This document shows positions 6,401 to 30,854 of a stretch of 32,000 nt of DNA, piece by piece; position 1 is the stretch's first letter, and each line of letters starts with the position of its first letter. This stretch comes from Nitrososphaera viennensis EN76 (GTDB lineage Archaea > Thermoproteota > Nitrososphaeria > Nitrososphaerales > Nitrososphaeraceae). Below the pieces are notes generated by a model. The model did no database searches. It saw nothing but the letters and a program-made list of their open reading frames with translations, and was not told where the DNA came from. Location: assembly GCF_000698785.1 (NCBI RefSeq), contig NZ_CP007536.1:90001-122000 (forward strand), given 5' to 3'. A program made the position numbers and the translations under genes.

Positions 6401-9400
6401 AGAGCGATCCGCTCGCTGTCAGAAACGCTCTCTGTGACAGACATAGTCGCTTCTAGGACATCGCGCTCGCTGTCTGATGCGATAACCGTGGCAGATGCCA
6501 TCGCCAAGTCCGTCTCGCGCTCTATGTCTGAAACAGTCGGCATAACGGACGCGGTATCAACCTCTGCCTCGCGCTCGGCTTCCGACTCGGTCGCAGTGGC
6601 CGACAGCATATCCACGGCCACCAGCCGTTCGCTGCAGGATGCCCTGTCAATCACCGATGCCGCCTCGCCAACAGGCGTCCGCTCGCTGTCTGAAACAGTC
6701 GCGATAGCAGATTCTATCAGCCGCTCTGTTTCGCGCTCTATATCCGACACGCTCACGGTTGCAAGCGCAATCGTGCCGACCACGTCCAGCGGGCTTGCAG
6801 ATGCGCTAGCAATCACGGACGCAATCGGCAGGTCTATATCGCGTTCCATCGCCGACACGCTGACAGTCACCCCAAGCGCAAACAGCGGCGCAACACCTGC
6901 GGTATTTGACAGCGTGGCCGTTACAGCATCGGTATCTATCGGCGTGTCAAGGAGCATCTCTGACTCTGTGACCGTAATCTCAGAGATCTTGCAAGAAGGC
7001 GCCCGCACGGCTGACGTCAGCATTATAGTGGGAGACGCAATAACCACTAGGGTCTCGCGCTCTATATCGGATGCGCTGTCAGTCACGGCTGATGACATGC
7101 TGAAATCCATGTCGCGCTCGCCAAGCGACACGGTAACAGTGGCCGACGCAATCACCGGCAAGACAAGCCGCTCCCTATCTGACGCGCTATCGCTCGCTGA
7201 CGGCATATCCACCTCTACAAGCCGCTCCCTTGACGACGCAGTATCGATGACAGACTCCATCAGCCGCGCCGTCTCGCGCTCTATCGTAGACGCCCTGGCG
7301 CCAGCAGACTCTGTATCCACCGCGGTCACGCGCTCGCTTGCAGACTCTGTGGCAGTCGCCGACACCGCCTTGGGCAAGTCCGTCTTCCGCTCTGCATCTG
7401 ACACAATTGCCCTTGAGGACAAGATCAGCATGGCGGTGACAAGGTCGGTTACAGAGGCAGTTACCCTTGCAGACTCGGCAGTTCAGTCTACAGGCAGCAA
7501 GCTCTTTGACTCTGTAGCGGTTGGCGACCACATTTCGACGTCTGTGTCGCGTACAGTGTCCGAAGTGCTGTCGATGGCAGACGCCGCGTCCGAGTCGACG
7601 TCGCGCCCAGTCGCAGACGCGCTCTCTGTCACGGACGCCGTAAAGATATCGGTCGCCGGCGCAGTGTCTGATTCGGTGGCAGCCAGCGACGTCATAAAGA
7701 TGTCAGTCAGCCGCAGCGTCGCCGACTCTGCAACAGTTTCAGATGCAATGGCAACTTCCGGCGACAGGTCGCCGGCAGAAACCGTGTCCGTTACAGATGC
7801 AATATCAATGTCTGCAAGCCGGTCAGTCTCTGACGCACTGGCGGTTTCAGACAACGCTTCAAGGGCGCCTGCCCTGGCAGTCGCCGACACGCTTGCAGTG
7901 GCCGACGCCATCTCTACCAGCAACAGCTACTCTGTAACAGTCTCTGACACTGTGTCTGCGGCCGACTCGATGACAAGGGCGCTGGGGGCATCGAGGCTTG
8001 CAGGCGACGCGCTTGCAACAACAGACGCGATAGGCACGCCTGCCTCGCTTGCAAGGGCGATATCTGACACGCTGGCCGTTGCTGATGCCGCCCTGGCTGG
8101 AGGCTCGATCAACGTGCCGATATCTGACTTGCTGACAGTCTCTGACGCGATAGCAAAGGCGGGCTCCGGGCCGTTCAGCGATGCCGTGGCAGTGACCGAC
8201 GCGGTGTCGATAGGCATAAGCCGCTCGATAGAGGATGCGATGTCGATGGCTGACTCGGTGGTGCCTCCAGTCATGCGCGCCATGGGCGACGCAGTTGCAA
8301 TAGCCGACCAGGTGTCCGCGATGATGGGCACTGCGGTGTCAATAGCCGACTCGGTTGGCATCAACTCGCAGATAACAAACGTGTCGGTGCACTGGAACAG
8401 GGTCTTTGAAGAGGGAGTCAATCTGGCAGACTGCACGCCGTTCTCGTGCAACCAGTCGCTGCACTTTGATGAAGGCCTGAGCCTGGCCGACGACGACTTC
8501 TTTACCTCGCCGCCTGGCCGCGTACTGCCCGCAAGCATCGCAGTAACGGACAGCATAGGAGTCAACAGGCCCCAGACCTTCATATCGCTTGCCGACTCGG
8601 TGGAAGTGTCTCCGGCAGTCAAGCCGCTCCTGCCAATCCTCGTCAACAACCACGCGGACGACCATGGCAGGCCGCCGAACTTTTCCGTTCCAGGCAACTA
8701 CACCTGGGACGGGACCCCTGCATCCCTGAGGGATGCCCTGGAGCTTGAGCCGCTCTACTTCAACACGACGGTGAACCGGGACAACCTGCCAAACCAGATA
8801 ATAACGCTCCGGCTCTGGGACGTGGCAATAGTGCCTACTGCTAACCTGCCTGCAAACAACACGCTCATATCTGATCGCGCCGCAAACATCCCGGCAGGCG
8901 TGCCCGTGCAGGTGCGCGTCAACTTTATGGACACTCCGTCTCTGTCCAGGCACTCTGACTTTATCCGCTCGCTGGACGTGCAGTTCACTCCTGCCATGCT
9001 CACCACAGACTTTGGCCTGATAGTGACTCCTATGGATGCCCCGCCTGCAGGGGCAAGCGTGCCGCCAGAAGAGCTTAGGCCGCTGTACATCGACGTCCGG
9101 TGGTGGGGCAACGTCCCCGGCGGGTCCGATCCTAGCGTCCAGAGCTACTACCAGAACCCGCCCACGTTCACCTTCACGGTAACCGACGAGTGGGCAAGAT
9201 CAGAGTCTGCCGTGAGGGATGCAAACGGGGTGCCTCTCATAAAGCTCAGGCTGCTCAACGAGGCTACGAACCAGTGGGAGGAGATAAACACGGTACAGAG
9301 GCCCACATCGTCTGCAAATGACGGGACGTACACCTTTACTGCAACCCTGCCCCACTTCTCTGACTATGTGATAACTGCGGTCAAGAGTGCGACTTCAGGA

Positions 9401-10498
9401 TCCGGCTCGTCCTCGTCTACACCGCCCGTCAAGCCGCGGATCTTTGCAGTGAACTTGGTCGACTCGATAGCGCTTGCAACATCGTCAAGCAGCAAGGCAG
9501 TCGGCGAGATAATAGAGTTTGTGAACGAAAAGTTCTCCGCCAACCTCCTTGACTCCGTCGTGGTATCCAGCAAGCCGGTGGCGTACAACACGTTCAAGAT
9601 ACTCAAGGACGTCGAGGTGTCGATAACGGTGGTCGATGTCAGGCAGGAAAGCGTGGCTCCTCCAAGCGCGACAGCCGTAATCCAGACCGACATCACAAAC
9701 GCCGGCGACCTGGCCGAGAAATTCACCCTCAACTTCTGGTACAACGACCAGACTGGCAAGCGCGCCTTTGACCTGTCGCAGCAGGTGGATGTAGAGGCGC
9801 ACGGATTCAAGACGCTGCAGGTGACGATACCGTTCACAGAGCCGGGCACTTACCGCGTCACGGCCGAGGCAAGGTCCGTGCCTGAAAACGATCTGCTGGA
9901 GTCGACGCAGCTGACAGTCGTCGTCCCGTGGCTCTCCGTCTACCTCTATGTGCTCATGACGGTGGCAATAGCCATACTTGGAGGGTCGGCAATCGCAATA
10001 GCGCTGTACATGGCAAGAAACGGCATGGCGATTGCAGCAGGCGCAGGAGCAGCAGGCGCCTTAATACTGCTACTTGGACGCAAGCGCAAGCCACGTGTGA
10101 GAGTGGCAGAAAAGAGACCTGTAGATTATGATTATGATGATGGCGATGGTAATGGTAATGGTGGTGATGACGACTATGACCTGCTGGTAAACGTCAAGCT
10201 CGCAAACGGCTCTGAAGGCAGACTCGCGCCGGGTGAGCGCATGGCGCTGTTTGACTTTGAGATAATCAACAAGTCAAGGAGGAAGCAAGAGTTCGTCCTG
10301 GCCTATCACTTGGTGGACATGGCCGGAGCGGCGATGATGCCCGAGTCAGTGGCAGAGGTAAAGATAGCCAAGCACAAGACGCAGCTGCGCAACGCCAAGC
10401 TAGAGCTTCTCGCAGGCGCCTACGTGCTCCACGTGGAGGCACGGACTGCAAGGGGTGAGGTCCTCAGCAGCGACCGCGTCAGCGTGAGGACCGCTTGA
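2..10498 (+). CDS. Giant modular cell-surface protein, 5'-partial (>=3,499 codons in window): beta-propeller-like modules, ~90 x 18-aa repeats, unique domain, CARDB/Ig-like domain, TM anchor, acidic linker, C-terminal Ig-like tail
   Basis: Frame 2 is open from nt 2 to TGA 10496-10498, so the track start (TTG 386) is internal. Codons 2-385 are collinear with the ends of the downstream modules. A hydrophobic segment at 9929-10078 is followed by RKRKPR. The S/T/D/A/V-rich composition and non-repetitive termini support the plus strand as coding. Confidence 0.9.
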   Translation, partial: TWAVGTINWVRLVPDPRSTSNAIFLAGSGSSNDLDSAYWSGSAWTDHAEHDAGISGNAARVFDFAWDGSSSNGVLAWSTASNSISFTRGDPSSGTFGTDGTFTVDADASTTSWIRLASNPTTADTVAALGLEDDGNSDIGGIRWDGSTNAPVSTGTDDISTTSTNNSWEPFSIDFQKVVAIATKNISDTIATSPSIVAAKFKVASIPQTITITPTIVKKVTRSLPNTVTVSDSIARSVTVTPDTTPAAMAYRSDDGTNGSSSPKYREWNPTTKTWGSQVELESAGSPIRNAWIEFSPVSTKRVIIVLSEDGTLDSYACDFGCTIPSSWTVTHDIVDLWNVVTPAAQKRPFDIEFEKTSGDLMLVYDKEDGGDPATDLFYRIMPDSSHTFGSESVIDDTDTAAPDNVYSFIRLDSRRTPGSNDLGLVAESETNHRAVAWYWNGSTDTFGNMITLTTSVSTDVDYEGVGIGFETSTGDLVAVAAEGANVVYAQFSGGSWSTPANVGTLNVSTVRWVRFVPNPNAGTDGIQLVVSGYTGSAHQLNSAYWNATGWKIHAGETRHDASIDDSATRVFDFAWDNAGDATRGILVWGNGNNNMVFKRYTVPDTWTTIDFGAGAISDDGTHPWVSLNEHGNPISADAVSVLGAAIDNGADIGQLRWDGSASSVASWTDDGATAVGNTSSESFHVDFRRSPVLKKFPSIALTVADTLAAKIKTKVFSETVTFTVSLEAEKGSPTDSARSAAVYRSNTGTALLNSPKYREWNPATQAWSAEVELANTGSPVRDALIRFSPDSSLRVVVSHSDDGTLNLFKCDSSCTSASSWTLVAADFADTGTTNSAKPYRPYDILFETTGERLVIVYDKELTEDADFYYRTFDGTTLSGETGVNLGGAADAEELRYLHLAAHPTTNEMTVAILDATNLRSYGAVWSGSAWGNVQTVSSSLSIENADGDSVDVAYETLTGASLVFSGNGGNSAAYARWTGSSWTTGTTNPNPGVTSEDVKFVSLKSDPLSSSNKVMACQGDDESDLSCSQFAAGTPGAWTLITTNTGTAAGRAFDFAYNPAGTTGLLVSSSGASGTLDYRAFNGTGFGNASTLSAAGTHKWVLGASAISATDVVNSMFLKSNSNFDTGAIRSKAGTTALIGDASLTGDSGNDTYESMHIDFQKSKRVKRASADTITVAPAVTRGLGKSLSDTVTIAPAVSKAVGKPVSDTITVSAVAAKNPTVTIPLSITVTDSVRKRVTRSVTDTITVGDSITKHIIYSPSVALSINDSVARHVSATRSVADTVAIGVSAGGAYHASRPVSDTLSVSPDVARAYHATRSASVSLSVSDAIAKSITRSLSDTVTVAPSIGRAYSPSRSLSDTVTVAPEVARAYLASRSMAETLSVSDAVAGTSAFAREIADSVSFATAVSSSASRSLPNTISITDSISPTTGRSLANTISLADAITTRTSRSVSDSVAVTDSIARRASRSLADSLSATDSISRRASRSAAETVSVTDAIATTAKRSLADTLSVADAISTSAIRALANTVSLTDAINTRTSRSLSDSISVAETLSGIAARPLSTTITVTDAISILSTRNISDTVTVMAEILQEGRRSVDSNVSISDSISTKVSRTLSDLLSLADSAKPNVNRRLLTSLTVTDAISQTVSRSLADSLSLSDAVSTAVTRSLSDALDLTDAIAKSVSRSTSDSIGIADAISARTSRSLSDSIAVTDSVATRTSRPVSDALAVTDAVRTSVSRSISDSLSVDAAVSTSVSRFLSDSLSVTDAIAKSVSHSLSDSIAVADAIAKSVSRSVSETVGVTDAITRSASRSLSDPVVLADAITTAVSRSIADTIPVTDAIVPNSRRSMSDTLTLADSISHTASRSVSETLSLTDAVSTTASRSMADSVAVTDAIAKSVSRSIADSVTVAATANSGPSRSSSDSISLSDAVSVKVSRSISDSVTVISEILQEGKRSADVSIAISDAITIAVSRSLADSVSLASNITTAVSRSLSDTVTVADSISRSVSRSLSDSISATDAISTTVSRSLADSLSITPAINSTTSRSLADSVSIADAIITSASRSLSDNIALADSISTSVSRSLADTVSVADAIARAAADSRSPSDSIAATDAIATTASRSISDALSVTDALSSRAIRSLSETLSVTDIVASRTSRSLSDAITVADAIAKSVSRSMSETVGITDAVSTSASRSASDSVAVADSISTATSRSLQDALSITDAASPTGVRSLSETVAIADSISRSVSRSISDTLTVASAIVPTTSSGLADALAITDAIGRSISRSIADTLTVTPSANSGATPAVFDSVAVTASVSIGVSRSISDSVTVISEILQEGARTADVSIIVGDAITTRVSRSISDALSVTADDMLKSMSRSPSDTVTVADAITGKTSRSLSDALSLADGISTSTSRSLDDAVSMTDSISRAVSRSIVDALAPADSVSTAVTRSLADSVAVADTALGKSVFRSASDTIALEDKISMAVTRSVTEAVTLADSAVQSTGSKLFDSVAVGDHISTSVSRTVSEVLSMADAASESTSRPVADALSVTDAVKISVAGAVSDSVAASDVIKMSVSRSVADSATVSDAMATSGDRSPAETVSVTDAISMSASRSVSDALAVSDNASRAPALAVADTLAVADAISTSNSYSVTVSDTVSAADSMTRALGASRLAGDALATTDAIGTPASLARAISDTLAVADAALAGGSINVPISDLLTVSDAIAKAGSGPFSDAVAVTDAVSIGISRSIEDAMSMADSVVPPVMRAMGDAVAIADQVSAMMGTAVSIADSVGINSQITNVSVHWNRVFEEGVNLADCTPFSCNQSLHFDEGLSLADDDFFTSPPGRVLPASIAVTDSIGVNRPQTFISLADSVEVSPAVKPLLPILVNNHADDHGRPPNFSVPGNYTWDGTPASLRDALELEPLYFNTTVNRDNLPNQIITLRLWDVAIVPTANLPANNTLISDRAANIPAGVPVQVRVNFMDTPSLSRHSDFIRSLDVQFTPAMLTTDFGLIVTPMDAPPAGASVPPEELRPLYIDVRWWGNVPGGSDPSVQSYYQNPPTFTFTVTDEWARSESAVRDANGVPLIKLRLLNEATNQWEEINTVQRPTSSANDGTYTFTATLPHFSDYVITAVKSATSGSGSSSSTPPVKPRIFAVNLVDSIALATSSSSKAVGEIIEFVNEKFSANLLDSVVVSSKPVAYNTFKILKDVEVSITVVDVRQESVAPPSATAVIQTDITNAGDLAEKFTLNFWYNDQTGKRAFDLSQQVDVEAHGFKTLQVTIPFTEPGTYRVTAEARSVPENDLLESTQLTVVVPWLSVYLYVLMTVAIAILGGSAIAIALYMARNGMAIAAGAGAAGALILLLGRKRKPRVRVAEKRPVDYDYDDGDGNGNGGDDDYDLLVNVKLANGSEGRLAPGERMALFDFEIINKSRRKQEFVLAYHLVDMAGAAMMPESVAEVKIAKHKTQLRNAKLELLAGAYVLHVEARTARGEVLSSDRVSVRTA
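3497..8370 (+). repeat. Coding tandem array of 54-nt (18-aa) units, roughly 90 copies, with a ~1.1 kb higher-order period
   Basis: Consecutive units have the form SRS[LI][SA]D[ST][LIV][SA]V[TA]D[AS][IV][SA]xxx, for example 'SRSLSDSIAVTDSVATRT SRPVSDALAVTDAVRTSV SRSISDSLSVDAAVSTSV'. Insertions 'SEILQEG(K/R/A)R' occur at 4763, 5843 and 6983. A 42-nt stretch at 5807-5848 is perfectly identical to 6947-6988. Confidence 0.9.
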
Positions 10499-11196: not shown

Positions 11197-12978
11197 ATGA
11201 ATCAAATGAGCAGCTGGGGCAATATTGGGCGCCCCCTTGTCATAATAATAACGGTCGCGCTTGCCAGCATGACTGCGGTGTCCTCATTTCTCGTGTACAC
11301 GGCACAGCAGACCACACAGTCAAACATCGCACTGGCGGCGTCTCAGGCGCTCAGGAGTAACTTGGCAGAGGACAGCGAGGAGGTGTCAAGCAGGGTATCC
11401 GTCACTCTTGGCAATGCAGAGCGCCTCCTTGCCGCGTCTGCTCTTGCAATTGCAGGCAAGGACCCTGCAAGCGACTCCGTCCGGCAGGCGCTTCTGCTGA
11501 TAGAATCTGCACTTGGCCCGTACGCGGACAACATCATCTGGATATCTGGCGAAGGCAAGCTCCTCTATGCCGCAAGCGCGGGCACGTCCCTCACGATAGG
11601 CTCTGATCTCTCGGACAGGCGCTTTTACGAGCTGCCGCTTGCCACCAACCGCCCGTACATAAGCCCGTTGCTCTCAGACATGGGAAGCGTGCCAAGCTTT
11701 GCCATTGCGGTCCCTGTCCCGCAATCTGCCGCAAACAGCTCTTTTAATGGAGTGCTTGCGGCCATCGTGCCTGTCAGCTCCGCTAGGAACGTTTTCCTTG
11801 CGCCGTACGCGTCTACTGACAAGTCGCTGATGCTGGTTTCAAACGACGGGACGATCCTGATTCACTCGTCAGACGAGCTGATGGGTAAGAGCATCGCAGA
11901 AAATGGCGCCCTCCTCAGCCTGGTGTCGGACGATACAAAGGAGATGGTGCAACAGAGCCTGCAACTCATGGCGCAGGGCAAGTCCGGCGTACTGGAATAC
12001 AAGGACAGGGACGGGAACGAGACATTGATGGCGTACGCGCCGGTGATGGTAAACAGGACGCACGTCTTGACCGTCGCGGTATCCCAGGCTATGTCTGTGG
12101 TGCAGAAACCTTTTGTGGACGTTTTTGCAGAACGCGAAAACTTTAGCCTCATCGCGACGGTCCTGATAGCCGCCATTTCCGCGATATTCATCACGTTCAT
12201 ACTCGCGCTTAACAAGCGCCTCTTTACCACCGTGAGCAAGCAGGACGAAAAGATCTCAAACCAGCTGGCCGAGCTCACCGCTGCCAATGAGCGGCTGAAG
12301 GAGCAGGACGTAATCAAGGACGAGTTCATCAACATAGCCGCGCACGAGCTGCGCACCCCCGTGCTACCTATAGTCCTCAGCGCCGAGAACCTTGCCGACA
12401 GCATGCCTGACAACGACAACATCAGGATAATCCTGCGCAACGCAAACCGCATCACGAAACTTACAAACGACATCCTTGACGTAAGCAGGATAGAGAGCAA
12501 CACCTTCAAGCTCCAGAAGCAAAAGACCAACATCAAGAGGCTGATAGAGGAAGTAATCCAGGACGCGCAGCTAAAGATACCAAAGGGCCAGGATGTCGAG
12601 ATCGTCTTTGAGGAAAAGGTGCCCCCTGCGATGGAGGATCTCATGATAGACCGGGGAAGGATAAGCCAGGTGCTGGTAAACCTGGTGGACAACGCCGTCA
12701 ACTTTACCGAGTCCGGGGTAATACGCGTCGTGCTGGAGCCGGACACTGCGGCAGGGCGTGTAAAGGTGAGCATCACCGACAGCGGCAAGGGGATCGATCC
12801 CTCGGTCATGCCCAAGCTGTTCGGCAAGTTCGTGTCAAAATCAGACAGGGCCAAGGGAACGGGCCTTGGGCTCTACCTGTGCAAGGCAATAGTAGAGTCG
12901 CACGGGGGCACGATATACGGCGAGAACAACGCCGCCGGCACGGGAGCGACATTCTCGTTCACTCTGCCAGTGAATTAA
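11197..12978 (+). CDS. Membrane sensor histidine kinase with an extracytoplasmic Cache-like domain
   Basis: There are two TM segments ('VIIITVALASMTAVSSFLVY' and 'FSLIATVLIAAISAIFITFILAL') flanking a ~280-aa loop. H-box 'FINIAAHELRTPV'. N-box 'LVNLVDNAVNF'. G1 'DSGKGI'. G2 'GTGLGLYLCKAIVESHGG'. Confidence 0.95.
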   Translation: MNQMSSWGNIGRPLVIIITVALASMTAVSSFLVYTAQQTTQSNIALAASQALRSNLAEDSEEVSSRVSVTLGNAERLLAASALAIAGKDPASDSVRQALLLIESALGPYADNIIWISGEGKLLYAASAGTSLTIGSDLSDRRFYELPLATNRPYISPLLSDMGSVPSFAIAVPVPQSAANSSFNGVLAAIVPVSSARNVFLAPYASTDKSLMLVSNDGTILIHSSDELMGKSIAENGALLSLVSDDTKEMVQQSLQLMAQGKSGVLEYKDRDGNETLMAYAPVMVNRTHVLTVAVSQAMSVVQKPFVDVFAERENFSLIATVLIAAISAIFITFILALNKRLFTTVSKQDEKISNQLAELTAANERLKEQDVIKDEFINIAAHELRTPVLPIVLSAENLADSMPDNDNIRIILRNANRITKLTNDILDVSRIESNTFKLQKQKTNIKRLIEEVIQDAQLKIPKGQDVEIVFEEKVPPAMEDLMIDRGRISQVLVNLVDNAVNFTESGVIRVVLEPDTAAGRVKVSITDSGKGIDPSVMPKLFGKFVSKSDRAKGTGLGLYLCKAIVESHGGTIYGENNAAGTGATFSFTLPVN

Positions 12979-16890: not shown

Positions 16891-16915
16891 AGGCTGTTTT
16901 TTGTTATTACAGCCT
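16891..16915. terminator. Hairpin plus T-tract between convergent genes (possible bidirectional terminator)
   Basis: AGGCTGT (16891-16897) and ACAGCCT (16909-16915) are separated by the loop TTTTTGTTATT. The hairpin sits between the stop at 16882-16884 (+) and the stop at 16907-16909 (-). Confidence 0.45.
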
Positions 16916-18937
16916 GAGATGAATCTTAATTCTCTTGTAATTTGCGTAAAGACTGACAGGATTGATTTCAGCTGCTCGTGCAATCTCCTTGGCACTGCTG
17001 CGATGTGCTTCTCCAGACATTATCACTGCCACATGAACGGCGGCGGCTGCCGTGGCTTTTGGGCTGCGACCTCCAAGCAAATTTGCATTATTTAGCCTGT
17101 CAACAATCTCTCTAGCTTTCTGTTTTGCGTGTTCTGAAAGACCCAGTTTTATCGAAATACTGTCTACAGATTGGATGGCCTTCTCGTAGGTGCTCAGCTG
17201 AGCGTTACTTGGTATATTGAGAACTATGCGTTCTTTTGGATCCAGATACACTTCATTTCCTTGCTTTTTCTTCTTCAGGAATCCTTTCTTTTCCAGATAA
17301 TCTACTCTGTTGCGGATCATTTTTTCCGTAATGTCTCCGCCATGCAGTGCAGATATCACATCGGTCAGAGTCTTGCCACCATCACGTATCTGCCTTCCTA
17401 TTTCATAATCAAGGACGTGTCTGAGCAGCTTTCTGTAAAATGGAGCGCGTATCCCGGTCTGCTCATAGAGGTAGTCTAGACTTTCCAGCAGGACTACAGA
17501 GAACCTTTCAAATCTATCTTTCTCCTGTCTCTCCATTTCATCCCATACAACCTGCCAGTCAAACCCTGAGCTCTGTGCAAGCCGGGCCATATCCTGTACG
17601 TCTCCTTCCCGGAGCGTTAGCCCTTTCATGAGGAATACATCTTCGTTTGCCATGATTCCAAGTTTCACCTTGCCGTGTACTTCGATCTTGGCTCGCTTTT
17701 TCATCCTGCCTGAAAGCGCAAGCTTGCGTGCAACGATTCTTGTAAAGATATCCACCCTGCTTCTTGCAGGATGCTCCAAGATATCTGATGCAGCTATTCT
17801 CTGATCGTCTGCTGACAGCCTTGATTTGTTAACAGATGTATAGCCCAGCTTCTTCAGTGTCTCTACGATGTGATTGAAAGACCTCTCATCCTGGACTACC
17901 AAGTCGCAATCCTTGGTTCGCGGCTTCAAGCCCTTGAGCCGCATGTTTTCGCCACCCAGCAGGTACGCTTCGGTCTCTGAAGGGATGTTTTGACCTATGT
18001 CTTTAAACAGGTCCGGGTAGGCTACAGGAAGCGTGTAGCTCTCTGTCGGAATGTCATAGAGCCTTGCCTTCTCTTCAAATTCTTGCCAGGGCAGAAACAG
18101 ATTCTGGTTTTTCACAGGTGTGTTCCGTAGGTAGCCTTCTATGTCCACCCACACGTCTGATATCATGTAATCTCTGGCTACCTTGCGGAGGGCCAGCGGG
18201 TCGAGTTTCTGCTTGTTCTTCAGATAGAATATCATGGCCATTACGATGCCGTGCTTGTCCTGCTCTTTGCTCGCCGCAAGCACGGCGTGTATAAGAGCTT
18301 CTGCAAGCTGAAGTGGCGTGTCCTGCTCGATATAGTAGTCATGCGTTGTGTGATATTCTACGCCGTAATCGGGAAAAAGCGAAAAACCGGTGAGCTCTCC
18401 ATCTACCCGCTTGCCTTTTGGAACCTTCTTTAAGGTCCTAGCAAGATCTTGATAGATTATTTCCGCGTACGGCTCGACGTGTTTTTTTTCGCTTTCTGTC
18501 TTCAGATATTCCGCATATAGGTAAAGCGGCTCAAAATACCTGTTCAGATTTACTTTGCCCTTTTCATCCCTTCGGACCACACCAATGGATTCCAGCTCGG
18601 ATATTGCTCTTTGAACAGTCCTAAGCGACAGGCCAGTCAACCTCTGAATATTATTGATCGTTTTTGGCTCGGTCAGATTCTGGAACACCAGCTCATTTGA
18701 ATCGTGGAGCAGCTTTTCGACATCGAACTTGGACGCAACATCCCTGAAGAGGATTGTTTTTGAATTCGCCTTGAAGGTTATGGACGAGTCAGTCTTTTCT
18801 ATGTAATCCTGATTAGCAAGATCCCTTACCAAGTTGTTAAACTGCCATTCCCTGATCCCAATAATGTTCATTAGCTCTTTTGGATTAGATGCTCCATCCC
18901 TTACTGCCTTGAGCAGTGCTATTGCCGAAGGGTTCAT
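16907..18937 (-). CDS. Multidomain fusion: wHTH x2, Pol-beta-type nucleotidyltransferase domain, wHTH, C-terminal TFB/TFIIB-like cyclin fold
   Basis: NTase signature 'LLGGENMRLKGLKPRTKDCDLVV' fits hG[GS]-x13-D-x-D (nt 17894-17962), followed downstream by 'LMKGLTLREGDVQDMARL'. The C-terminus 'AKQKAREIVDRLNNANLLGGRSPKATAAAAVHVAVIMSGEAHRSSAKEIARAAEINPVSLYANYKRI' (nt ~16910-17170) matches the TFB cyclin-repeat pattern (G[RK]SP...AAAA.Y.A...GE...T..E.A....V...T.RNRYK). wHTH-like segments lie at aa 5-55, 84-132 and 517-567. Confidence 0.85.
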   Translation of the reverse strand: MNPSAIALLKAVRDGASNPKELMNIIGIREWQFNNLVRDLANQDYIEKTDSSITFKANSKTILFRDVASKFDVEKLLHDSNELVFQNLTEPKTINNIQRLTGLSLRTVQRAISELESIGVVRRDEKGKVNLNRYFEPLYLYAEYLKTESEKKHVEPYAEIIYQDLARTLKKVPKGKRVDGELTGFSLFPDYGVEYHTTHDYYIEQDTPLQLAEALIHAVLAASKEQDKHGIVMAMIFYLKNKQKLDPLALRKVARDYMISDVWVDIEGYLRNTPVKNQNLFLPWQEFEEKARLYDIPTESYTLPVAYPDLFKDIGQNIPSETEAYLLGGENMRLKGLKPRTKDCDLVVQDERSFNHIVETLKKLGYTSVNKSRLSADDQRIAASDILEHPARSRVDIFTRIVARKLALSGRMKKRAKIEVHGKVKLGIMANEDVFLMKGLTLREGDVQDMARLAQSSGFDWQVVWDEMERQEKDRFERFSVVLLESLDYLYEQTGIRAPFYRKLLRHVLDYEIGRQIRDGGKTLTDVISALHGGDITEKMIRNRVDYLEKKGFLKKKKQGNEVYLDPKERIVLNIPSNAQLSTYEKAIQSVDSISIKLGLSEHAKQKAREIVDRLNNANLLGGRSPKATAAAAVHVAVIMSGEAHRSSAKEIARAAEINPVSLYANYKRIKIHLRL

Positions 18938-24570: not shown

Positions 24571-24744
24571 GTGCCAAGATATAACCAGAAGTCGGTAACC
24601 GTGTCGATCAGCCTGAAGAACAAGATAAAGGAGTACATGAAGGACTATGGCTTTCACAGCCAGCCGCAGGCAATTGAAGATGCACTGACTCTGGCAAGAG
24701 GGGTTAGGGCTGTCGTGACGAAAAAGGAGGCCGCGGTTGAATGA
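24571..24744 (+). CDS. 57-aa ribbon-helix-helix protein (absent from the ORF track), translationally coupled to the integrase; possible excisionase or regulator
   Basis: My translation from GTG 24571 is 'VPRYNQKSVTVSISLKNKIKEYMKDYGFHSQPQAIEDALTLARGVRAVVTKKEAAVE*', which follows the RHH pattern. The stop TGA at 24742-24744 overlaps the integrase ATG 24741 (ATGA). Confidence 0.6.
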   Translation: MPRYNQKSVTVSISLKNKIKEYMKDYGFHSQPQAIEDALTLARGVRAVVTKKEAAVE

Positions 24745-26150
24745 TGGTACAGTCTGATGCAGTATCTGAAAAGGCCGGCAACATTCAGAAGTTCGACCAT
24801 CCGAGGATTGAAAGAAAGAAGAGCCGCCTTCGCGTCAAAGGCATCAAAGTCAGCGACAAGGACAAGATCAGAGAGGCAATAATGATCAGCGTCCAGAAGG
24901 GCAACTACACCACGCGCGAGATCGGGCTTGACATAGGCAAGGACTACAGCACAGTTTCAAGGTATCTCTCAGAGATGGAAGGAGATACAAGGTGGGGAAT
25001 AAAGCGCGATGCAAACGGCAGCATCGTAATGTCGCTGCAGCAACAGCTAGCCCACGAATACGCCAAGCTGCAGAACGAGAAATTCTCGCAGCTTCCGTCC
25101 ATACAGAAGTGGATAACGTACTTAAAGTCAGCTGGCATACCCGCAAGGCGTATCCAGTATATGTTAAACATCATTCATGGGATCGCGGATCAGCTGCTGG
25201 TGATGCCGGAGACCTTAGTCAGCTACGGAGTACCCATCGACACTGCAAAGAGGAAAGAGATAGCCATAGAGTACTGGCAGAATTTTCTTGCATGGTTCAA
25301 TACCGCGTACCCGCAGATGCAAAAGACAAACACCATCAACGCTTATCGAAGCTTTCTGTCTTCCCACAGCGTTAACTTTGCTCACGGCGAAGGCAAGAGA
25401 TACGGACTCTCAACAACGCCGGAGAGGCTTGGGGAGTACAAGGAAATCATGCTCACGCCTGAGCAGATTGCCATCATAAACAAGCGTCTTGAGAATGAGG
25501 GCGACTGGGAATCCTGGTCGTTTATGAACATCGATCTACACAGTGGAGCTAGAGCATTTGCTATGGCGTCCATGAGCTGGGATAGAATAGTGATGTCTCC
25601 TGCCTTCAGGGTAGAGCAGTTTGAACCCAAGATCAAAAAAGGTGCATGGTACCTTACAAAGGAAGGCAAGTGGTGGGTCAAGTACCCGACTGAGGAGTGC
25701 AGAGCGGTAGTCGAGACCGCTTATGACAGGTTACCAAAAAGGGATTTTGTGTTCTTTGATGATTCGGGAAGTGACAAGGCTAACTGTCTGCAGGTTAGCT
25801 ATTTCATGCACACGATGGCAGTCAAGTTCAAGAAGATATTCTTGGATCTTAACAAAACAAGCTGGCTCAACGAAAAGACTAGGATCTATGCGCTAGGCGA
25901 TGGGTTGTACTTTAACGGTCATCCATTACACCTGTTCAGGCATACGATGGCTCAATATTACCTGGCGGCTACAAACTGGTCTCTTGCTTACGTGGCAAGC
26001 TTAGGCGGATGGGAAAACACGGAAGTACTGAACAAATGCTATGGCGGAATACCCGAGCATATCAAGGTGCAAGTAGCAAAGTCTATACACGTCAGGTTTG
26101 ATAGCATACGTCTCAATGCCTCAATAGCCAACATTGACAGACATTTTTAG
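24741..26150 (+). CDS. Tyrosine recombinase/integrase (intact) with an N-terminal HTH region
   Basis: C-terminal catalytic motifs are present: 'HSGARAFAMASMSWDRI' (box I Arg), 'HLFRHTMAQYYL' (H-x-x-R-H) and 'LGGWENTEVLNKCYGG' (W...Y nucleophile region). N-terminal HTH: 'TTREIGLDIGKDYSTVSRYLSEME'. Confidence 0.9.
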   Translation: MMVQSDAVSEKAGNIQKFDHPRIERKKSRLRVKGIKVSDKDKIREAIMISVQKGNYTTREIGLDIGKDYSTVSRYLSEMEGDTRWGIKRDANGSIVMSLQQQLAHEYAKLQNEKFSQLPSIQKWITYLKSAGIPARRIQYMLNIIHGIADQLLVMPETLVSYGVPIDTAKRKEIAIEYWQNFLAWFNTAYPQMQKTNTINAYRSFLSSHSVNFAHGEGKRYGLSTTPERLGEYKEIMLTPEQIAIINKRLENEGDWESWSFMNIDLHSGARAFAMASMSWDRIVMSPAFRVEQFEPKIKKGAWYLTKEGKWWVKYPTEECRAVVETAYDRLPKRDFVFFDDSGSDKANCLQVSYFMHTMAVKFKKIFLDLNKTSWLNEKTRIYALGDGLYFNGHPLHLFRHTMAQYYLAATNWSLAYVASLGGWENTEVLNKCYGGIPEHIKVQVAKSIHVRFDSIRLNASIANIDRHF

Positions 26151-26599: not shown

Positions 26600-26611
26600 G
26601 CAACTAGTTGC
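26600..26611. promoter_or_regulatory. Perfect 12-bp palindrome GCAACTAGTTGC spanning the in-frame TAG and the TTG start of the methyltransferase (possible operator)
   Basis: The palindrome was read directly. It is flanked by GGGG (26592-26595) and CCCC (26611-14). An A/T-rich 'CGATATATTG' lies about 30 nt upstream. Confidence 0.35.
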
Positions 26612-27756
26612 CCCTGACTGCAATCTCACTGTTTTCTGGGGCCATGGGCCTCGATCTTGGATTTGAAAAGGCGGGATTCGATATTAGGGTCGCTTGCGAA
26701 TTAAGGGAAGAGGTCTGCAAAACCATATCCTTGAACAGGCCTGCCCTGCAGGTACTGCCGGGAGATATAGCAAAACACAGTACAACTGATATCCTGAAAA
26801 GAGCCCGCCTTAGAGTGGGCGAAGCCACCGCCGTGATTGGCGGTCCAGCATGTCAACCTTTTTCTACCGCTGGCGGCAGGCAGTCGTTTAATGAAAAGAG
26901 GGGAGAGGTACTCTTTGAATATATCAGGATAGTTAACGAGGCCAAGCCACAGTTCTTTATCTTCGAAAATGTTAAGGGCCTGACCAGTGCCGCACTTAAG
27001 CATATTTCATTCTACGAGCGCGTCAAGAAGAAAGAACATGAGTTACATGAAGAATACCGACTAGGTACTGCGTATCAGTATATGATGGAAAAGCTCAAAG
27101 GAACCGGCTATAAGATACACTCAAAGATACTCAACGCTGCAGACTATGGTGCCCCTCAGAAAAGATTACGGCTCATAATTATAGGATCCCGCGATGGCGT
27201 CGACGTCGATTTCCCAGAGCCTACACACGCTGCACCTGATTCAGAAGATGTTGTAAGTGGCAGAAAACAGCGATGGGTCACATTACGAGAGGCACTAAAA
27301 GGTTTGAAAGAAAATGAGCAAGAGTATGTGAAATTCCCGTCATGGGGCAGGTATATGAAGTATATCAAACCTGGCGGCGACTGGCGTGATCTGCCCGCGA
27401 GGATCCAAAGGAGAGCAATGAAAGAATCATATTTTTCACAAGGAGGTAGAACGGGATACTTTAGACGACTCAGTTGGGACAAGCCTAGCCCGACACTGGT
27501 GACATTGCCGATATTCAAGAGCACGTGCCTGGCACACCCCAAATCCAATAGGCCACTGAGTGTCCAAGAATATTCCCGATTACAGGGTTTCCCGGATGAA
27601 TGGAAATTCTATGGCACAGTAAAGCAACGCTATAGGATGATAGGCGAAGCTGTGCCGGTCCCGCTTGCCTATGCGGTAGCACTAGCGGTCAGGAATAAAT
27701 CAACTGAATTGTTGGGAATTGAGGAAGGAAATAGACAAAGAAAAAGAAATAGTTAA
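26608..27756 (+). CDS. DNA (cytosine-5)-methyltransferase, M.HaeIII-like family
   Basis: Motif I 'ISLFSGAMGLDLGF'. Motif IV 'GGPACQPFSTAG' (catalytic PCQ). Motif VI 'ENVKGL'. Motif VIII 'QKRLRLIIIG'. Motif IX 'RRLSWDKPSPTL'. Motif X 'GEAVPVPLAYAVA'. The TTG start is forced by an in-frame TAG at 26605-26607. Confidence 0.95.
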   Translation: MPLTAISLFSGAMGLDLGFEKAGFDIRVACELREEVCKTISLNRPALQVLPGDIAKHSTTDILKRARLRVGEATAVIGGPACQPFSTAGGRQSFNEKRGEVLFEYIRIVNEAKPQFFIFENVKGLTSAALKHISFYERVKKKEHELHEEYRLGTAYQYMMEKLKGTGYKIHSKILNAADYGAPQKRLRLIIIGSRDGVDVDFPEPTHAAPDSEDVVSGRKQRWVTLREALKGLKENEQEYVKFPSWGRYMKYIKPGGDWRDLPARIQRRAMKESYFSQGGRTGYFRRLSWDKPSPTLVTLPIFKSTCLAHPKSNRPLSVQEYSRLQGFPDEWKFYGTVKQRYRMIGEAVPVPLAYAVALAVRNKSTELLGIEEGNRQRKRNS

Positions 27757-28390
27757 CACAGTTCTGCATTGGAGCAGAAGAAATATCCGGGATTTTCCTT
27801 GGCGCAATGGTTTCTCTCCGTACAGGGTACTTATCGCGGAGCTTCTTCTAAGGCGCACGACGGCTCAAGCAGTACAGCGCGTTTACGATGAATTTATAGA
27901 GACCTATCCCGACCTCCAGCATCTTTCGAAGGCATCTATCGGGGAACTTGAAGACCGTCTTAAAACACTAGGATACCATAGACTAAGGGCAATATTGATC
28001 AGGGAAGTCGTCTCTGAAATGCTATCCAAATACAAGGGGATCCCAGACACACTAGAGGAATTATTATCGATCAAGCATATTGGCCTATACACAGCAGCCG
28101 CTATCATATCACTAGGCTACAATAAGCCATTACCTATGGTCGACACTAATGTACTACGGATATTGGGAAGAGTATATGGTCGGTCGATGACACAACAACA
28201 GGCCTTTGAGCTTTTGAAAGGAAAACTACCAGTTGACTCCAGACGGTTTAATTTATCTCTGCTCGACTTTGGAGCGCTTGTATGCAGGTATAAGAATCCG
28301 TTGTGTCATGTTTGTCCACTAAATGACTCATGTACATATTACCAAATCAAGGTAAAAAATACGAAGTATAGGGAGCAGGGGCCTAGCTAG
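27719..28390 (+). CDS. HhH-GPD / Nth-MutY-family DNA glycosylase with a 4Fe-4S cluster loop (Mig-type T:G mismatch glycosylase candidate)
   Basis: 'FPWRNGFSPYRVLIAELLLRRTTAQAV' is a MutY/Nth-like N-terminus. HhH 'LLSIKHIGLYTAAAII'. Catalytic-Asp region 'VDTNVLRILGRV'. 'CRYKNPLCHVCPLNDSC' fits C-x6-C-x2-C-x5-C. The gene overlaps the MTase 3' end by 38 nt and has a TTG start. Confidence 0.85.
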   Translation: MRKEIDKEKEIVNTVLHWSRRNIRDFPWRNGFSPYRVLIAELLLRRTTAQAVQRVYDEFIETYPDLQHLSKASIGELEDRLKTLGYHRLRAILIREVVSEMLSKYKGIPDTLEELLSIKHIGLYTAAAIISLGYNKPLPMVDTNVLRILGRVYGRSMTQQQAFELLKGKLPVDSRRFNLSLLDFGALVCRYKNPLCHVCPLNDSCTYYQIKVKNTKYREQGPS

Positions 28391-28416: not shown

Positions 28417-29772
28417 TCATTTTGGAGTCCCTGATTGTTTAAGGGCCTTTTCAACAATAAACACTCTTTGAGGATCTGCTTTTGCAATCCCTGTCTTCAC
28501 TTCATTTAACCATCGTCTTAGAGATTCGGTTCGTTCCGTGGTGTTGATGATGCTAGGCACAAACGCTCTTTCGCTGTTGTAATATTTTATGACACAGTCC
28601 ATAAGAAACTCAAGATCTGAAGGAGTAATTAGTGGCCAGTACTGGATCACAACCTTTTCCATGTCGGAACTGTTCAGGCCTGTTTTATGCTGCAACATTT
28701 GTAAGAGCTCCGATAGCTTCGAAGGGTCTGACAATACATCAAGAGCGACATAGATTGTACCTCCCTCAGTATGACTCCTCTTCCTTTCTACAAAGTATAG
28801 TTTCGCGGAACCTTTGCTGCCGCTGATTACTACGTGATCCTGCTGCTCGTTTGTATGGCCCCCCATCTCCTTAAGCATCAGCAGCAAGGAATGCAAACGA
28901 CTGTTAAACACATCATCTTTTTTCAGTTCTCCTATAGTCACTACGGGTGTTCCATGTAACTTGTCCTTATCGCCTGGGAGTTTGACTACTTCAGAAGACT
29001 CTACTAGCTCCGTCCTTATCCATGATAGAACCTCCTTGACAAGTTCAAAGTCATCTATTTCAAATGCTAGTGTATCTTTTATGTGGCCCTCGTCTGGCTT
29101 AAACCGGACGAGCGTGTTGAAAATAAGGTCAGGTATGTTCTTGAGGTAAGTCCTCTGTATTATCGCTACACCCTTGTCCTTGAAAGGTATCCAATAAGCC
29201 TGCGACGACTCAAACATCCTACCTATGATATCATATGCCGCTACCTTACGAACTCTCATGACGCTAGGCTTATTGTCGCGAGAAGTGAAGACTACAAAGT
29301 AGCTGTCTCCCCGTTTATTGCTACATTTCAACACTGACCGGTTTTTTGTATTAGCGCCGATCCCTCCTTCCCTTTTGTAGGTATAGAGGTGCGCCCATAC
29401 CCTCTTCTCTGGATCGAACTGAAACCACGAGCCGTAGAAAGGGAGGTTTATGAAAACAGGGTGGCCCACAGTCCTAATACTTTGGCCATATCGCGATTTT
29501 AGAATCACTACGTGATCCTCGAGCGTGTGGATTGTAACACCGATATCCCTAAGCTCTCGCACGATACTTTTACGCTGCGCCGACACCACCGCAAAACCCC
29601 AGAACCTACCGATCGCTCCGAACTGGACATCAGATCTCAGCAGTATCCTTTCTATTAGTTGCTTTTTGAGTGATGGCATATCTTTGACTTGAACGAAACA
29701 ATTACGAATCATCTCACAGAGGTCAGGCTTACCATGGGCAAAACAATCTTCACAGCTCGCAAGTGGATCCAA
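28417..29772 (-). CDS. Uncharacterised 451-aa protein: N-terminal Cys cluster, internal duplication; no recognised catalytic motif
   Basis: 'CEDCFAHGKPDLCEMIRNC' fits C-x2-C-x8-C-x5-C (nt 29698-29754). The motif '(D/E)(I/M)G-x7-(E/Q)DHVVI-x2-S-x2-G' occurs twice, with DHVVI at nt 29503-29517 and 28825-28839 and a 13-nt identical core ACTACGTGATCCT. The TTG start lies 1 nt after the upstream gene's stop. Confidence 0.75.
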   Translation of the reverse strand: MDPLASCEDCFAHGKPDLCEMIRNCFVQVKDMPSLKKQLIERILLRSDVQFGAIGRFWGFAVVSAQRKSIVRELRDIGVTIHTLEDHVVILKSRYGQSIRTVGHPVFINLPFYGSWFQFDPEKRVWAHLYTYKREGGIGANTKNRSVLKCSNKRGDSYFVVFTSRDNKPSVMRVRKVAAYDIIGRMFESSQAYWIPFKDKGVAIIQRTYLKNIPDLIFNTLVRFKPDEGHIKDTLAFEIDDFELVKEVLSWIRTELVESSEVVKLPGDKDKLHGTPVVTIGELKKDDVFNSRLHSLLLMLKEMGGHTNEQQDHVVISGSKGSAKLYFVERKRSHTEGGTIYVALDVLSDPSKLSELLQMLQHKTGLNSSDMEKVVIQYWPLITPSDLEFLMDCVIKYYNSERAFVPSIINTTERTESLRRWLNEVKTGIAKADPQRVFIVEKALKQSGTPK

Positions 29773-29773
29773 G

Positions 29774-30742
29774 CTATGTCACCGCCAACTTCCTAGAAAG
29801 CTCTTCGAAGTTTTGCAATATCTGGATTAGCGCCGCCTCTTCTTGCTGCTCTTGCGACAGAACCTCTCCAATCCTCTTACGCATACCAAATGTCACCCGA
29901 GCATACAGATGTCCGAGTGGTGTTAGCCTAAAGTTATGATCACTGCTTACTACACGTTTGAGCAGTCCTTCTCTTTCCATATCAAAACTTACGTTCTTAA
30001 GTGACTTCTTGATACCTTCGAATGATCTGTTGGTGCCTCTCTGGGGAGGCATATACTCGGACATGCCAAGTGACAAAACCTTGGTTGTAATCCCCGATAC
30101 ATTAAGCGCGGGATGCTGGTTATCCGGGTAAACGGAAGGATGTATGAAGAAATGGCACATTAGCAGTACAAAGGTTTCAGGGCTCAGTAGGTTTAATGTT
30201 GAATTAAAGGCAGGCAACTCTCTTATTGTCGGTAACATAGCGTCACCAATCAGCCTGTTGTATGCCATGAAAATCCTTATCGTGTCGACCCCCAGGGCTC
30301 CCAAGATGTTAGCAACATAAAACGGCAGCGGATCCGGGCTTTGCCCGTTTATAACGACTAGGCGCACCTCTGTTTTCTTTATGTGCTGTTGTAGGCATTC
30401 ATTCAGACCCTTGATCCATCGCTCTTTGGCCAGTTCAAAACCCTTGTCCGACGGCTCATCTCCCATGTAGTGGGCTACAACATCAGAATGTGTCTCAAAA
30501 GTCGTCCGGCCGGCTAGCATAGGCACGAGGTTGTCATCCGGGTAGGCAGCCATTACTGGTAGGATGTCTCCCCTCAAGTGCTCAGGGACGAGCGGTACTA
30601 TCTTTTGAAGCTCTGTCTCATCTGGCACAAGTTCCGGTTCACTAATGCGTCTTTCATGTATGAACAGGGCGGAGTCGTTGCTATACTGTGACAGTGCATA
30701 GGAGAGAAGACGTTTGTCGGTGGACCGCCATAGTAATAGCAT
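29774..30742 (-). CDS. Uncharacterised 322-aa protein: N-terminal alpha/beta-like domain plus C-terminal winged-HTH-like region
   Basis: The C-terminal 'LSPETFVLLMCHFF...GITTKVLSLGM...SFEGIKKSLKNVSFDMEREGLLKRVVSSDHNFRLTPLGHLYA' follows a wHTH-like pattern. 'VRLVVINGQSPDPLPFYVANILGALGVDTIRIFMAY' looks like a Rossmann-like strand-helix-strand. The gene is tightly coupled to the downstream 451-aa gene. Confidence 0.75.
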   Translation of the reverse strand: MLLLWRSTDKRLLSYALSQYSNDSALFIHERRISEPELVPDETELQKIVPLVPEHLRGDILPVMAAYPDDNLVPMLAGRTTFETHSDVVAHYMGDEPSDKGFELAKERWIKGLNECLQQHIKKTEVRLVVINGQSPDPLPFYVANILGALGVDTIRIFMAYNRLIGDAMLPTIRELPAFNSTLNLLSPETFVLLMCHFFIHPSVYPDNQHPALNVSGITTKVLSLGMSEYMPPQRGTNRSFEGIKKSLKNVSFDMEREGLLKRVVSSDHNFRLTPLGHLYARVTFGMRKRIGEVLSQEQQEEAALIQILQNFEELSRKLAVT

Positions 30743-30854
30743 AACCTCTTGGTCTTGTTCTTTATATTAAACTTTTCATAAAATGACGTATTTAGTAATG
30801 ACTAACTTCGTCATTTAGAAACAGTTCTTAAGCATCGATCCCGCTTTACGCCCT
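30743..30854. promoter_or_regulatory. Divergent control region with TATA-like element and an 8-bp perfect inverted repeat
   Basis: TTTATATT lies at 30761-30768, 20-27 nt from ATG 30742 on the minus strand. AAATGACG (30781-30788) and CGTCATTT (30809-30816) are separated by 20 nt that contain a third ATGAC copy. Confidence 0.5.

Follow-up and report, generated by a model that had tools for sequence, protein, structure and literature searches.

The DNA examined here is a window of 32,000 nucleotides from the archaeon Nitrososphaera viennensis EN76 (contig NZ_CP007536.1, positions 90,001 to 122,000 of the forward strand), and its right end is a class-2-type locus of the antiviral defence system DISARM. 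Two adjacent minus-strand genes in this locus, called X and Y below, have no counterpart in the family libraries searched, and the best explanation for them is that they are the conserved fourth and fifth, lineage-specific components of the DISARM system of N. viennensis. What could these two components do? The interpretation we prefer, and hold with moderate confidence, is that X would regulate DISARM from a divergent promoter region, and that Y would be a zinc-type accessory factor acting with DrmAB.

In the mechanism proposed, X is predicted to be a transcription factor of the dimeric, winged-helix type with a Rossmann-like, CARF-like sensor domain. It would bind a 36-bp palindrome lying between two divergent TATA-like boxes and would thereby control how strongly both the X-Y operon, to which it belongs, and drmA-drmB-drmC are expressed, and the sensor domain probably ties this control to a small ligand or to the state of the cell. 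Y would have several domains and no catalytic activity, and zinc would probably stabilise it (with C7, C10, H82 and H87 as candidate ligands); it would work with DrmAB in the role played by DrmE in bacterial class 2 systems.

The DISARM locus and its conserved X-Y pair

Both open reading frames (ORFs) given in a preliminary description of the window, which was made from the letters alone, are present: X at 29774-30742 (minus strand, 322 aa, ATG start) and Y at 28417-29772 (minus strand, 451 aa, TTG start). X is supported by the homologues P0016-P0020 and P0100-P0107, and Y by family alignments. The single nucleotide that was said to separate the stop of X from the start of Y is found in the sequence, and a Shine-Dalgarno-like run, GGCGGTGA, lies just 5' of the Y start. 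The public annotation gives shorter products, 284 aa for X and 420 aa for Y. Because residues 5' of the annotated starts are kept in homologues down to 21-32% identity, among them W5 and S7 in X and C7, C10, F11, P16, L18, C19 and E20 in Y, the long N-termini are, judged by this conservation, real coding sequence. The annotated starts are too far downstream; with them Y loses its conserved CxxC element and X the first two strands of its sensor domain.

What kind of locus surrounds the pair? Divergent from X, drmA starts at 30855 on the plus strand and runs off the window at 32000, and its N-terminal 382 codons match the PADLOC DrmA model PDLC02573 with E 1.1e-270 (model positions 1-382 of 1018). 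On the other side, the X-Y operon is convergent with a pair of plus-strand genes. The gene at 26608-27756 is drmMII, a C5 cytosine methyltransferase that matches PADLOC DrmMII PDLC02650 over its full length (E 1.3e-212) and Pfam DNA_methylase (E 6e-63). It overlaps by 38 nt the gene at 27719-28390, which encodes an HhH-GPD/MutY-like glycosylase with an iron-sulfur (Fe-S) motif. This glycosylase matches Pfam HhH-GPD and EndIII_4Fe-2S, the PADLOC 'Type II nicking endonuclease' (E 5e-37) and, below the cutoff, NCBIfam mutY (E 6e-43), and its role is presumed to be the repair of T:G mismatches arising from deamination of 5-methylcytosine. A metagenomic locus 88% identical to the window (L003) carries the complete cassette, with drmC, of the phospholipase D (PLD) type, followed by drmB and drmA, then divergent X-Y and the convergent glycosylase-drmMII pair; drmB and a PLDc_2-type drmC stand 3' of drmA in this locus as well as in L006, L008, L009 and L012. 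Since the window has the DrmMII and DrmA matches and L003 the complete cassette, the locus is class-2-type DISARM and not an orphan methyltransferase awaiting its restriction enzyme. A restriction or effector component had been expected in X and Y from their place beside the methyltransferase and glycosylase genes, but DrmABC, of which DrmB and DrmC are expected here from L003, would already supply the restriction side.

Is the association of X and Y with DISARM conserved? Close homologues of X are rare, five in 5.8 billion proteins, to which an exhaustive profile search added seven distant ones, and relatives of the X-Y pair were found in about 20 further loci from metagenomes or metagenome-assembled genomes (MAGs). 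X is divergent from drmA in every readable context (L004, L006, L008, L009, L012, the partial contigs L005 and L007, and the contig carrying P0003/P0020), and local hidden Markov model (HMM) maps agree with this layout. X homologues at only 21-36% identity (P0100, P0102, P0105, P0107 and that of L012) show the same arrangement. L012, a DISARM locus in a Bathyarchaeia MAG, holds the single X match among 185,579 species genomes. X and Y are coupled by 1-nt spacers or by overlaps in nearly all loci, and a C5 methyltransferase and a T:G-repair enzyme adjoin them almost everywhere the contig extends that far. For repair, some of these loci have an HhH-GPD glycosylase, and L004, L008 and L012 have Vsr.

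A scan with a DrmA alignment gave 26 more loci, ten of which (L015-L020, L022, L024, L028 and L035) form a second clade. Its DrmA is 28-31% identical, and it carries the C5 methyltransferase, the HhH-GPD protein, a Y homologue (HMM E 1e-12 to 1e-20) and, in the position of X and divergent from drmABC, an ORF of 271-370 aa. Profile-profile comparison with hhalign indicates homology between the clades for both proteins (99.4% for Y/Y'; 94.6%, E 7e-8, for X/X'). All 21 Y loci outside Nitrosotalea adjoin drmA, in two clades that share 14-31% identity in Y. The gene order shifts in two cases. In L008, Y has moved behind drmC and is transcribed with drmABC, and X is coupled to the methyltransferase; in L013, Y stands immediately 5' of drmA on the same strand, without X. 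These positions indicate that Y travels with drmABC; as it can relocate next to drmC or drmA, its probable role is that of an accessory factor of DISARM, in the place that DrmE has in bacterial systems. The preliminary description had put the pair forward as a candidate nuclease or sensor pair between a methyltransferase module and a helicase-like gene. The genes do belong to a defence locus, and their linkage to a methyltransferase and a helicase holds in every related locus examined, and the neighbourhood survey places the homologues consistently beside DISARM genes; the absence of methyltransferase or helicase linkage that would have spoken against the idea was not seen.

Scans of viral contigs with X and with DrmA, tblastn searches of plasmids with X and Y, and a metagenome scan with X all gave no match. 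In other DrmA-type loci, which are without X and Y, the gene upstream of drmA is a ShosT-like phosphoribosyltransferase or an ORF of about 760 aa. A relationship of X or Y to DrmA, DrmB, DrmC, the methyltransferase or the glycosylase was considered and rejected, the hhalign comparisons being null.

Several related loci have further genes of interest. On the P0003/P0020 contig (JGI 3300056388), X-Y lies beside drmA-drmB; in the place of the methyltransferase and glycosylase, the next genes are one with a faint likeness to EcoO109I, then a 404-aa ORF and genes for an SNF2 helicase and a NOV_C protein. The ShosT-like phosphoribosyltransferase ORFs, 256-262 aa long and immediately 5' of drmA, are at L010:4089-4877, L030:2962-3735 and L034:7036-7803; L032 and L038 have ORFs of this size 5' of drmA, which are known by size alone. 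Vsr and a C5 methyltransferase are carried by L032, L034 and L038, and a C5 methyltransferase only by L010; L030, which is bacterial by its GyrB neighbour, ends within drmB. Flanking related DISARM loci are also an ORF that matches a model of the TIGR-Tas RNA-guided endonuclease (L016:120-1019, E 5e-17) and an MmeI-like type IIG enzyme (L009:13985-17155).

X and the X/drmA spacer

X has no match in Pfam, NCBIfam, PADLOC (DrmE included) or PDB. Its AlphaFold (AF2) model, built from a 12-sequence alignment, is confident, with a predicted local distance difference test (pLDDT) of 85.5 and a predicted template modelling (pTM) score of 0.83. The N-terminal domain in the model is made of four beta-alpha units with a beta-hairpin (154-176) after them; residues 44-76 form a helical insertion. 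The C-terminal winged helix is composed of helices 215-224 and 241-257, the strands 261-263 and 270-273 forming the wing, and helix 275-286, after which come the C-terminal helices. An alpha/beta N-terminal domain with a C-terminal winged helix-turn-helix (HTH) had been claimed for the 322-aa protein, and the confident model agrees. As modelled, the HTH is joined by the hairpin wing that defines a PadR/MarR-like winged helix. Foldseek matches it to MukE and MarR/MepR (probability 0.6-0.98), and an HMM search of PDB sequences gives weak PadR matches for residues 232-281 (E 0.35-1.4).

Is the N-terminal domain then a CARF domain? The CARF fold is reportedly a six-stranded Rossmann-like fold in which strands 5 and 6 form a hairpin. 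When the X model was compared with PDB by Foldseek, the top matches were all CARF proteins, namely Sso1389 (2i71), the Csm6 proteins of Thermus and Thermococcus, and Csx1-Crn2 (E 0.009-0.03). At least 90% of the 12 sequences keep S7 at the end of strand 1, where CARF domains have a Ser/Thr. After strand 4 the consensus of this alignment is G-[QRMKSN]-[STR]-x-[DI]-P; no K/R is invariant there, and neither the conserved basic residue of CARF domains nor their [DN]x[ST]xxx[RK] signature is seen at this place. Because this basic residue and a CARF profile match are both missing, X is better described as CARF-like than as a member of the CARF family. The earlier analogy with CARF-wHTH proteins, which was drawn with no CARF signature in sight, stands as far as the sensor-plus-winged-helix architecture and a weak CARF-like fold signal are concerned. 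X residues 81-92 (TFETHSDVVAHY) resemble Y residues 80-91 (TIHTLEDHVVIL) at nearly the same residue numbers (hhalign E 0.06), which is probably due to chance.

Where would such a protein bind? The spacer between X and drmA is 112 bp long and contains, at 30781-30816, a 36-bp near-palindrome, AAATGACGTATTTAGT-AATG-ACTAACTTCGTCATTT, with 16-nt arms that are 88% complementary and a 4-nt spacer. We propose it as the operator of X. Two TATA-like boxes, both putative promoter elements, flank it. One, TTTAATATAAA, is at 30761-30771 on the minus strand, 19-29 nt 5' of the X start codon, and is conserved in L003; the other, TTCTTAAGCA, is at 30825-30834 on the plus strand, 21-30 nt 5' of the drmA start codon, with CTTAAGAACTGT conserved in L003. 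The palindrome sits 9 nt from the box of X and 8 nt from that of drmA. Its shuffle test gives p=0.004, and between the window and L003 it has kept 35 of 36 bases, against 26 of 38 in the adjacent flank.

Other lineages have palindromes of their own at the same place: TTTAGTCATGACTAAA in L004 and L012, AAACATTGTCCGGACAATGTTT in L009, ATTGTC/GACAAT repeats in L006, AGTTACTT..AAGTAACT in L007, GTTACT..AGTAAC in L008 and, in the second clade, GGTTTGGAAG-N14-CTTCCAAACC in L022. Related X lineages have half-sites in common, ATTGTCC in L006 and L009 and GTTACT in L007 and L008. The shuffle p values of single loci range from 0.001 to 0.22, and combining six independent lineages by Fisher's method gives p 5e-7. 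A palindrome in the promoter region of X itself, co-varying with X, is what would be expected of an autoregulator. As far as can be judged from these spacers, the pattern is the signature of a sequence-specific dimeric regulator on divergent promoters, and X would be the protein that binds there. Since the spacers carry lineage-specific palindromes, and that of the window lies midway between the TATA-like boxes, X is most likely the regulator of the locus, acting through its PadR/MarR-like winged helix and carrying the Rossmann-like, CARF-like domain at its N-terminus.

Y, its stand-alone paralogue and the surroundings of the locus

Like X, Y has no match in Pfam, NCBIfam, PADLOC (DrmE included) or PDB sequences, and 23 diverse members of its family are likewise without a match in the profile libraries. 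HMM searches of PDB sequences with X and Y returned noise only (Kelch, PadR, PseH, E>0.07). The AF2 model of Y, made from 42 sequences, is confident (pLDDT 87.4), and the arrangement of its domains is loose (pTM 0.56). It begins with a small N-terminal element containing C7, C10 and C19. An alpha/beta unit follows that ends in an invariant I-H82-T-L-x-x-H87 turn, and then an eight-stranded beta region (105-175) with a conserved F-D-P-x2-R124-x-W126. The rest consists of two alpha/beta units, the first with P214-D-x-I-F-x2-L-x-R223 and the second at 280-345, and of a helical bundle. In Foldseek, no PDB or BFVD structure matched the model at E<=0.001, and the weak matches have no common theme.

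Which residues of Y matter? H82, L84, H87, R124 and P214 are invariant across both DISARM clades and the stand-alone paralogues described below, and C7, C10, E20, T83, W126, F218, L221, R223 and D241 are nearly so. The preliminary description had noticed a C-x2-C-x8-C-x5-C cluster at the N-terminus. The string is there and its first two cysteines, C7 and C10, are near-invariant, but C19 is kept in only part of the family and C25 is not conserved. By their invariance the partners of C7 and C10 would be H82 and H87 rather than C19 and C25, and the simplest reading of this conservation is a putative Cys2-His2 metal site, probably for zinc, formed by C7, C10, H82 and H87.

Does Y carry any catalytic motif? 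No nuclease, peptidase or NTPase motif was found in it, and PD-(D/E)xK, HNH, PLD and GIY-YIG are absent by Pfam, PADLOC, NCBIfam, PDB sequences and Foldseek against PDB and BFVD. The reported lack of nuclease and Walker motifs is upheld, as no nuclease, ATPase or other family profile matches X or Y. The further idea that the pair is a candidate novel nuclease finds no support in either protein, by profile or by fold. The HExxH motif of zinc peptidases is not present either: the corresponding stretch is H82-T-L-x-x-H87, its intervening Glu (E85) is not conserved, and no profile of M78-type or other peptidases matches.

An internal duplication of Y had been claimed as well. The pentapeptide DHVVI does occur twice, at residues 86 and 312, and so does the 13-mer ACTACGTGATCCT, but a duplication is not supported at the level of the family. 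The second copy is not conserved in homologues (paralogues read KDSLTIS there), and in the model copy 1 is a helix (84-94) and copy 2 a strand (313-317). The N-terminal and C-terminal halves of Y match in BLAST over 33 residues (E 0.013), with an hhalign probability of 3.3%. A domain repeat is ruled out by the unconserved second copy, the different secondary structures and the null hhalign result. Because a 13-mer repeat of this kind arose in 4 of 300 shuffles, it is taken as a small coincidence of codons.

Y also occurs alone. A solo paralogue of about 32% identity, in about 90 clusters, is found in Nitrosotalea and related MAGs (L001:10001-11335; L002:10001-11335). Its chromosomal setting is stable, among ABC transporter genes, to which L001 adds CdvC/Vps4; X, DISARM genes and methyltransferases are absent from the vicinity. 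A solo paralogue conserved in such an ordinary chromosomal context speaks against Y as a toxic effector and in favour of a biochemical activity that needs no partner.

The rest of the window gives some hints about the setting. The G+C content falls from about 0.58 to about 0.45 near 13 kb, and a 469-aa ORF at 24741-26150, just 5' of drmMII, has a weak tyrosine-recombinase match and an N-terminal HTH. The G+C drop and this recombinase-like ORF suggest that the DISARM locus resides in an integrated element. No tRNA gene lies within the window. The low-GC region also encodes an unusual fusion, a 676-aa protein at 16907-18937 (minus strand) with several winged-helix segments (Csa3/TrmB-like matches) and a C-terminal TFIIB cyclin repeat. 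The high-GC part contains a 3370-aa ORF at 386-10498 (plus strand), followed by a Cache-domain histidine kinase at 11197-12978.

Alternative explanations and comparison with known systems

Several observations weigh against a regulator X with an accessory Y. The CARF-like fold matches of X are weak, with template modelling (TM) scores of 0.27-0.35 and none at E<=0.001 in Foldseek against PDB. No convincing CARF/Csa3 profile match was obtained for the X family: one of its 12 members matches Csa3 (E 0.028), and none matches in Pfam. The palindromes of L006 and L008 are each non-significant in their own shuffle tests. X, Y and 20 homologues match no PADLOC DISARM model, DrmE included, at E<=0.01 to 10. 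The sole hint linking Y to proteins in the DrmE position comes from the ORFs of about 760 aa directly 5' of drmA (L021:1723-4011; L026:283-2565; L027:2-2068), which are without a match in PADLOC or NCBIfam. Their alignment with Y covers residues ~113-260, the motifs W-x2-F-x-P-x2-R-x-W and P-x3-F among them, and reaches 12-16 bits and an hhalign probability of 18%, a sequence likeness that should be taken as a lead and not a result. The solo paralogue of Nitrosotalea, living without X or DISARM, indicates that the activity of Y does not require DrmAB.

The tight translational coupling of X and Y also fits two subunits of one complex. In that case both would be stoichiometric effector subunits of DISARM, a split equivalent of DrmE; X would read target or self DNA, for example its methylation, and the palindromes would be ordinary promoter architecture. 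We regard this as possible but unlikely. The start/stop coupling is conserved across both clades, X and Y together (773 aa) resemble in length the ~760-aa ORFs of L021 and L026 that align weakly with the Y core, and DrmE is essential in class 2 DISARM. However, the palindromes vary with the X lineage and are conserved above their flanks, as operators are, hhalign gives a null result for X against the ~760-aa proteins (E 0.87), L008 has X coupled to the methyltransferase and not to Y, and L013 has Y but no X. Might X and Y instead be a two-protein switch like CapH/CapP, ImmR/ImmA or DdrO/IrrE, with Y as a metal-dependent sensor that responds to a danger signal by inactivating the repressor X? 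The topology is that of CapH/CapP modules, which lie upstream of and opposite to defence operons, DISARM among them, and the invariant His and Cys of Y are consistent with a metal site. But Y has neither HExxH nor a peptidase profile, it occurs without X in L013 and alone in Nitrosotalea, and in L008 it is transcribed with drmABC, so a switch appears rather unlikely. We consider it quite improbable that X is a genuine CARF-class second-messenger receptor and that Y has an unseen fold with a DNA activity of its own, which would explain both its DrmE-like position and its solo life. If X were such a receptor, the whole of DISARM would be under the control of a nucleotide signal, such as cyclic oligoadenylates from a type III CRISPR system in the same cell.

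In restriction-modification (R-M) systems with a C protein, the C-R operon begins with the controller gene, which has a palindrome 5' of it, and a second gene is closely coupled to its end. The X-Y operon recalls this order and is convergent with the methyltransferase and glycosylase genes, and a faint EcoO109I-like gene follows the pair on the P0003/P0020 contig. On these grounds the pair might be a new restriction nuclease or effector that belongs with the C5 methyltransferase, independently of DISARM, X being the C-like protein and Y the R subunit. This is very improbable: Y shows no nuclease motif or fold and tracks drmABC when the gene order shifts (L008, L013), X-Y on the P0003/P0020 contig lies beside drmA/drmB with no methyltransferase in view, and a solo Y conserved in Nitrosotalea without a methyltransferase would be odd for a restriction enzyme. 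Lastly, Y and perhaps X could be a housekeeping or DNA-metabolism factor that merely lies beside defence genes. The Nitrosotalea paralogue, in its stable ABC transporter/CdvC neighbourhood across some 90 clusters, is in keeping with this; yet 21 of 21 Y loci outside Nitrosotalea adjoin drmA in two clades, and the single X among 185,579 species genomes is in a DISARM locus, which leaves the idea hardly credible.

What would follow if X is the regulator and Y the accessory factor? The locus defines two protein families with no Pfam, NCBIfam or PADLOC entry that apparently stand in for DrmE in two or more deep clades of archaeal-type DISARM, and it offers a concrete regulatory element, the proposed 36-bp operator with a sensor-winged-helix protein. 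A ligand response of X would mean that DISARM is inducible rather than constitutive. If Y partners DrmAB, it would give a smaller and better-conserved handle on the problem of the 'fifth component'. The PADLOC definition of type II DISARM requires DrmE (PMC9252829), and detection tools with this requirement will miss or misclassify such systems. The literature searched covers DISARM-adjacent regulators and the YprA/DrmA family, and the X and Y families are not described there.

How does the locus compare with known systems? It shares with the C-protein/R operons of type II R-M systems a palindrome 5' of the gene for a DNA-binding protein, a stop codon abutting the next start, and a separately transcribed methyltransferase. 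It differs from them in that X is three to four times larger and has a sensor domain, Y has no nuclease features, and the restriction side would be DrmABC. Divergent regulators 5' of defence operons, DISARM included, are known in CapH/CapP and BrxR/CapW (bioRxiv 10.1101/2022.04.27.489752). Common to these and to our locus are an HTH protein upstream of and divergent from the defence operon and an intergenic palindrome, and it is by this analogy that X may be given its role. CapH/CapP is, in addition, a two-gene module that has been seen with DISARM, where CapH-CapP fusions lie beside it. By contrast, X has no WYL domain and is not a small HTH protein like CapH, and Y has no HExxH. The Csa3-type CARF-wHTH regulators of CRISPR-Cas loci resemble X in their N-terminal Rossmann-like sensor ending in a beta-hairpin, their C-terminal winged helix and the conserved Ser at the end of strand 1, and CARF proteins are the top fold matches of X. 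Unlike them, X is about 100 residues larger, with its helical insertion at 44-76, has no conserved basic residue after strand 4, and has no source of cyclic oligoadenylates linked to its locus.

The closest comparison is with class 2 DISARM itself, which is summarised as drmE-drmA-drmB-drmC-drmMII (Ofir et al. 2018, via bioRxiv 10.1101/2021.12.28.474362 and PMC9252829). DrmE is an essential component of class 2 whose function is unknown, as described for the Bacillus system (bioRxiv 10.1101/2021.12.28.474362). Plasmid searches with two DrmA queries recovered no authentic DrmE. The systems share the YprA-family helicase DrmA, the DUF1998 protein DrmB and the PLD-type DrmC (these two seen in L003), the C5 methyltransferase DrmMII, and an extra component by drmA. 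X and Y occupy the slot of DrmE, yet they match no DrmE model and are divergent from drmA. Our locus differs further in that a T:G-repair enzyme, either HhH-GPD or Vsr, is a constant neighbour of the methyltransferase, and in that its known hosts, Nitrososphaera and Bathyarchaeia, are archaeal.

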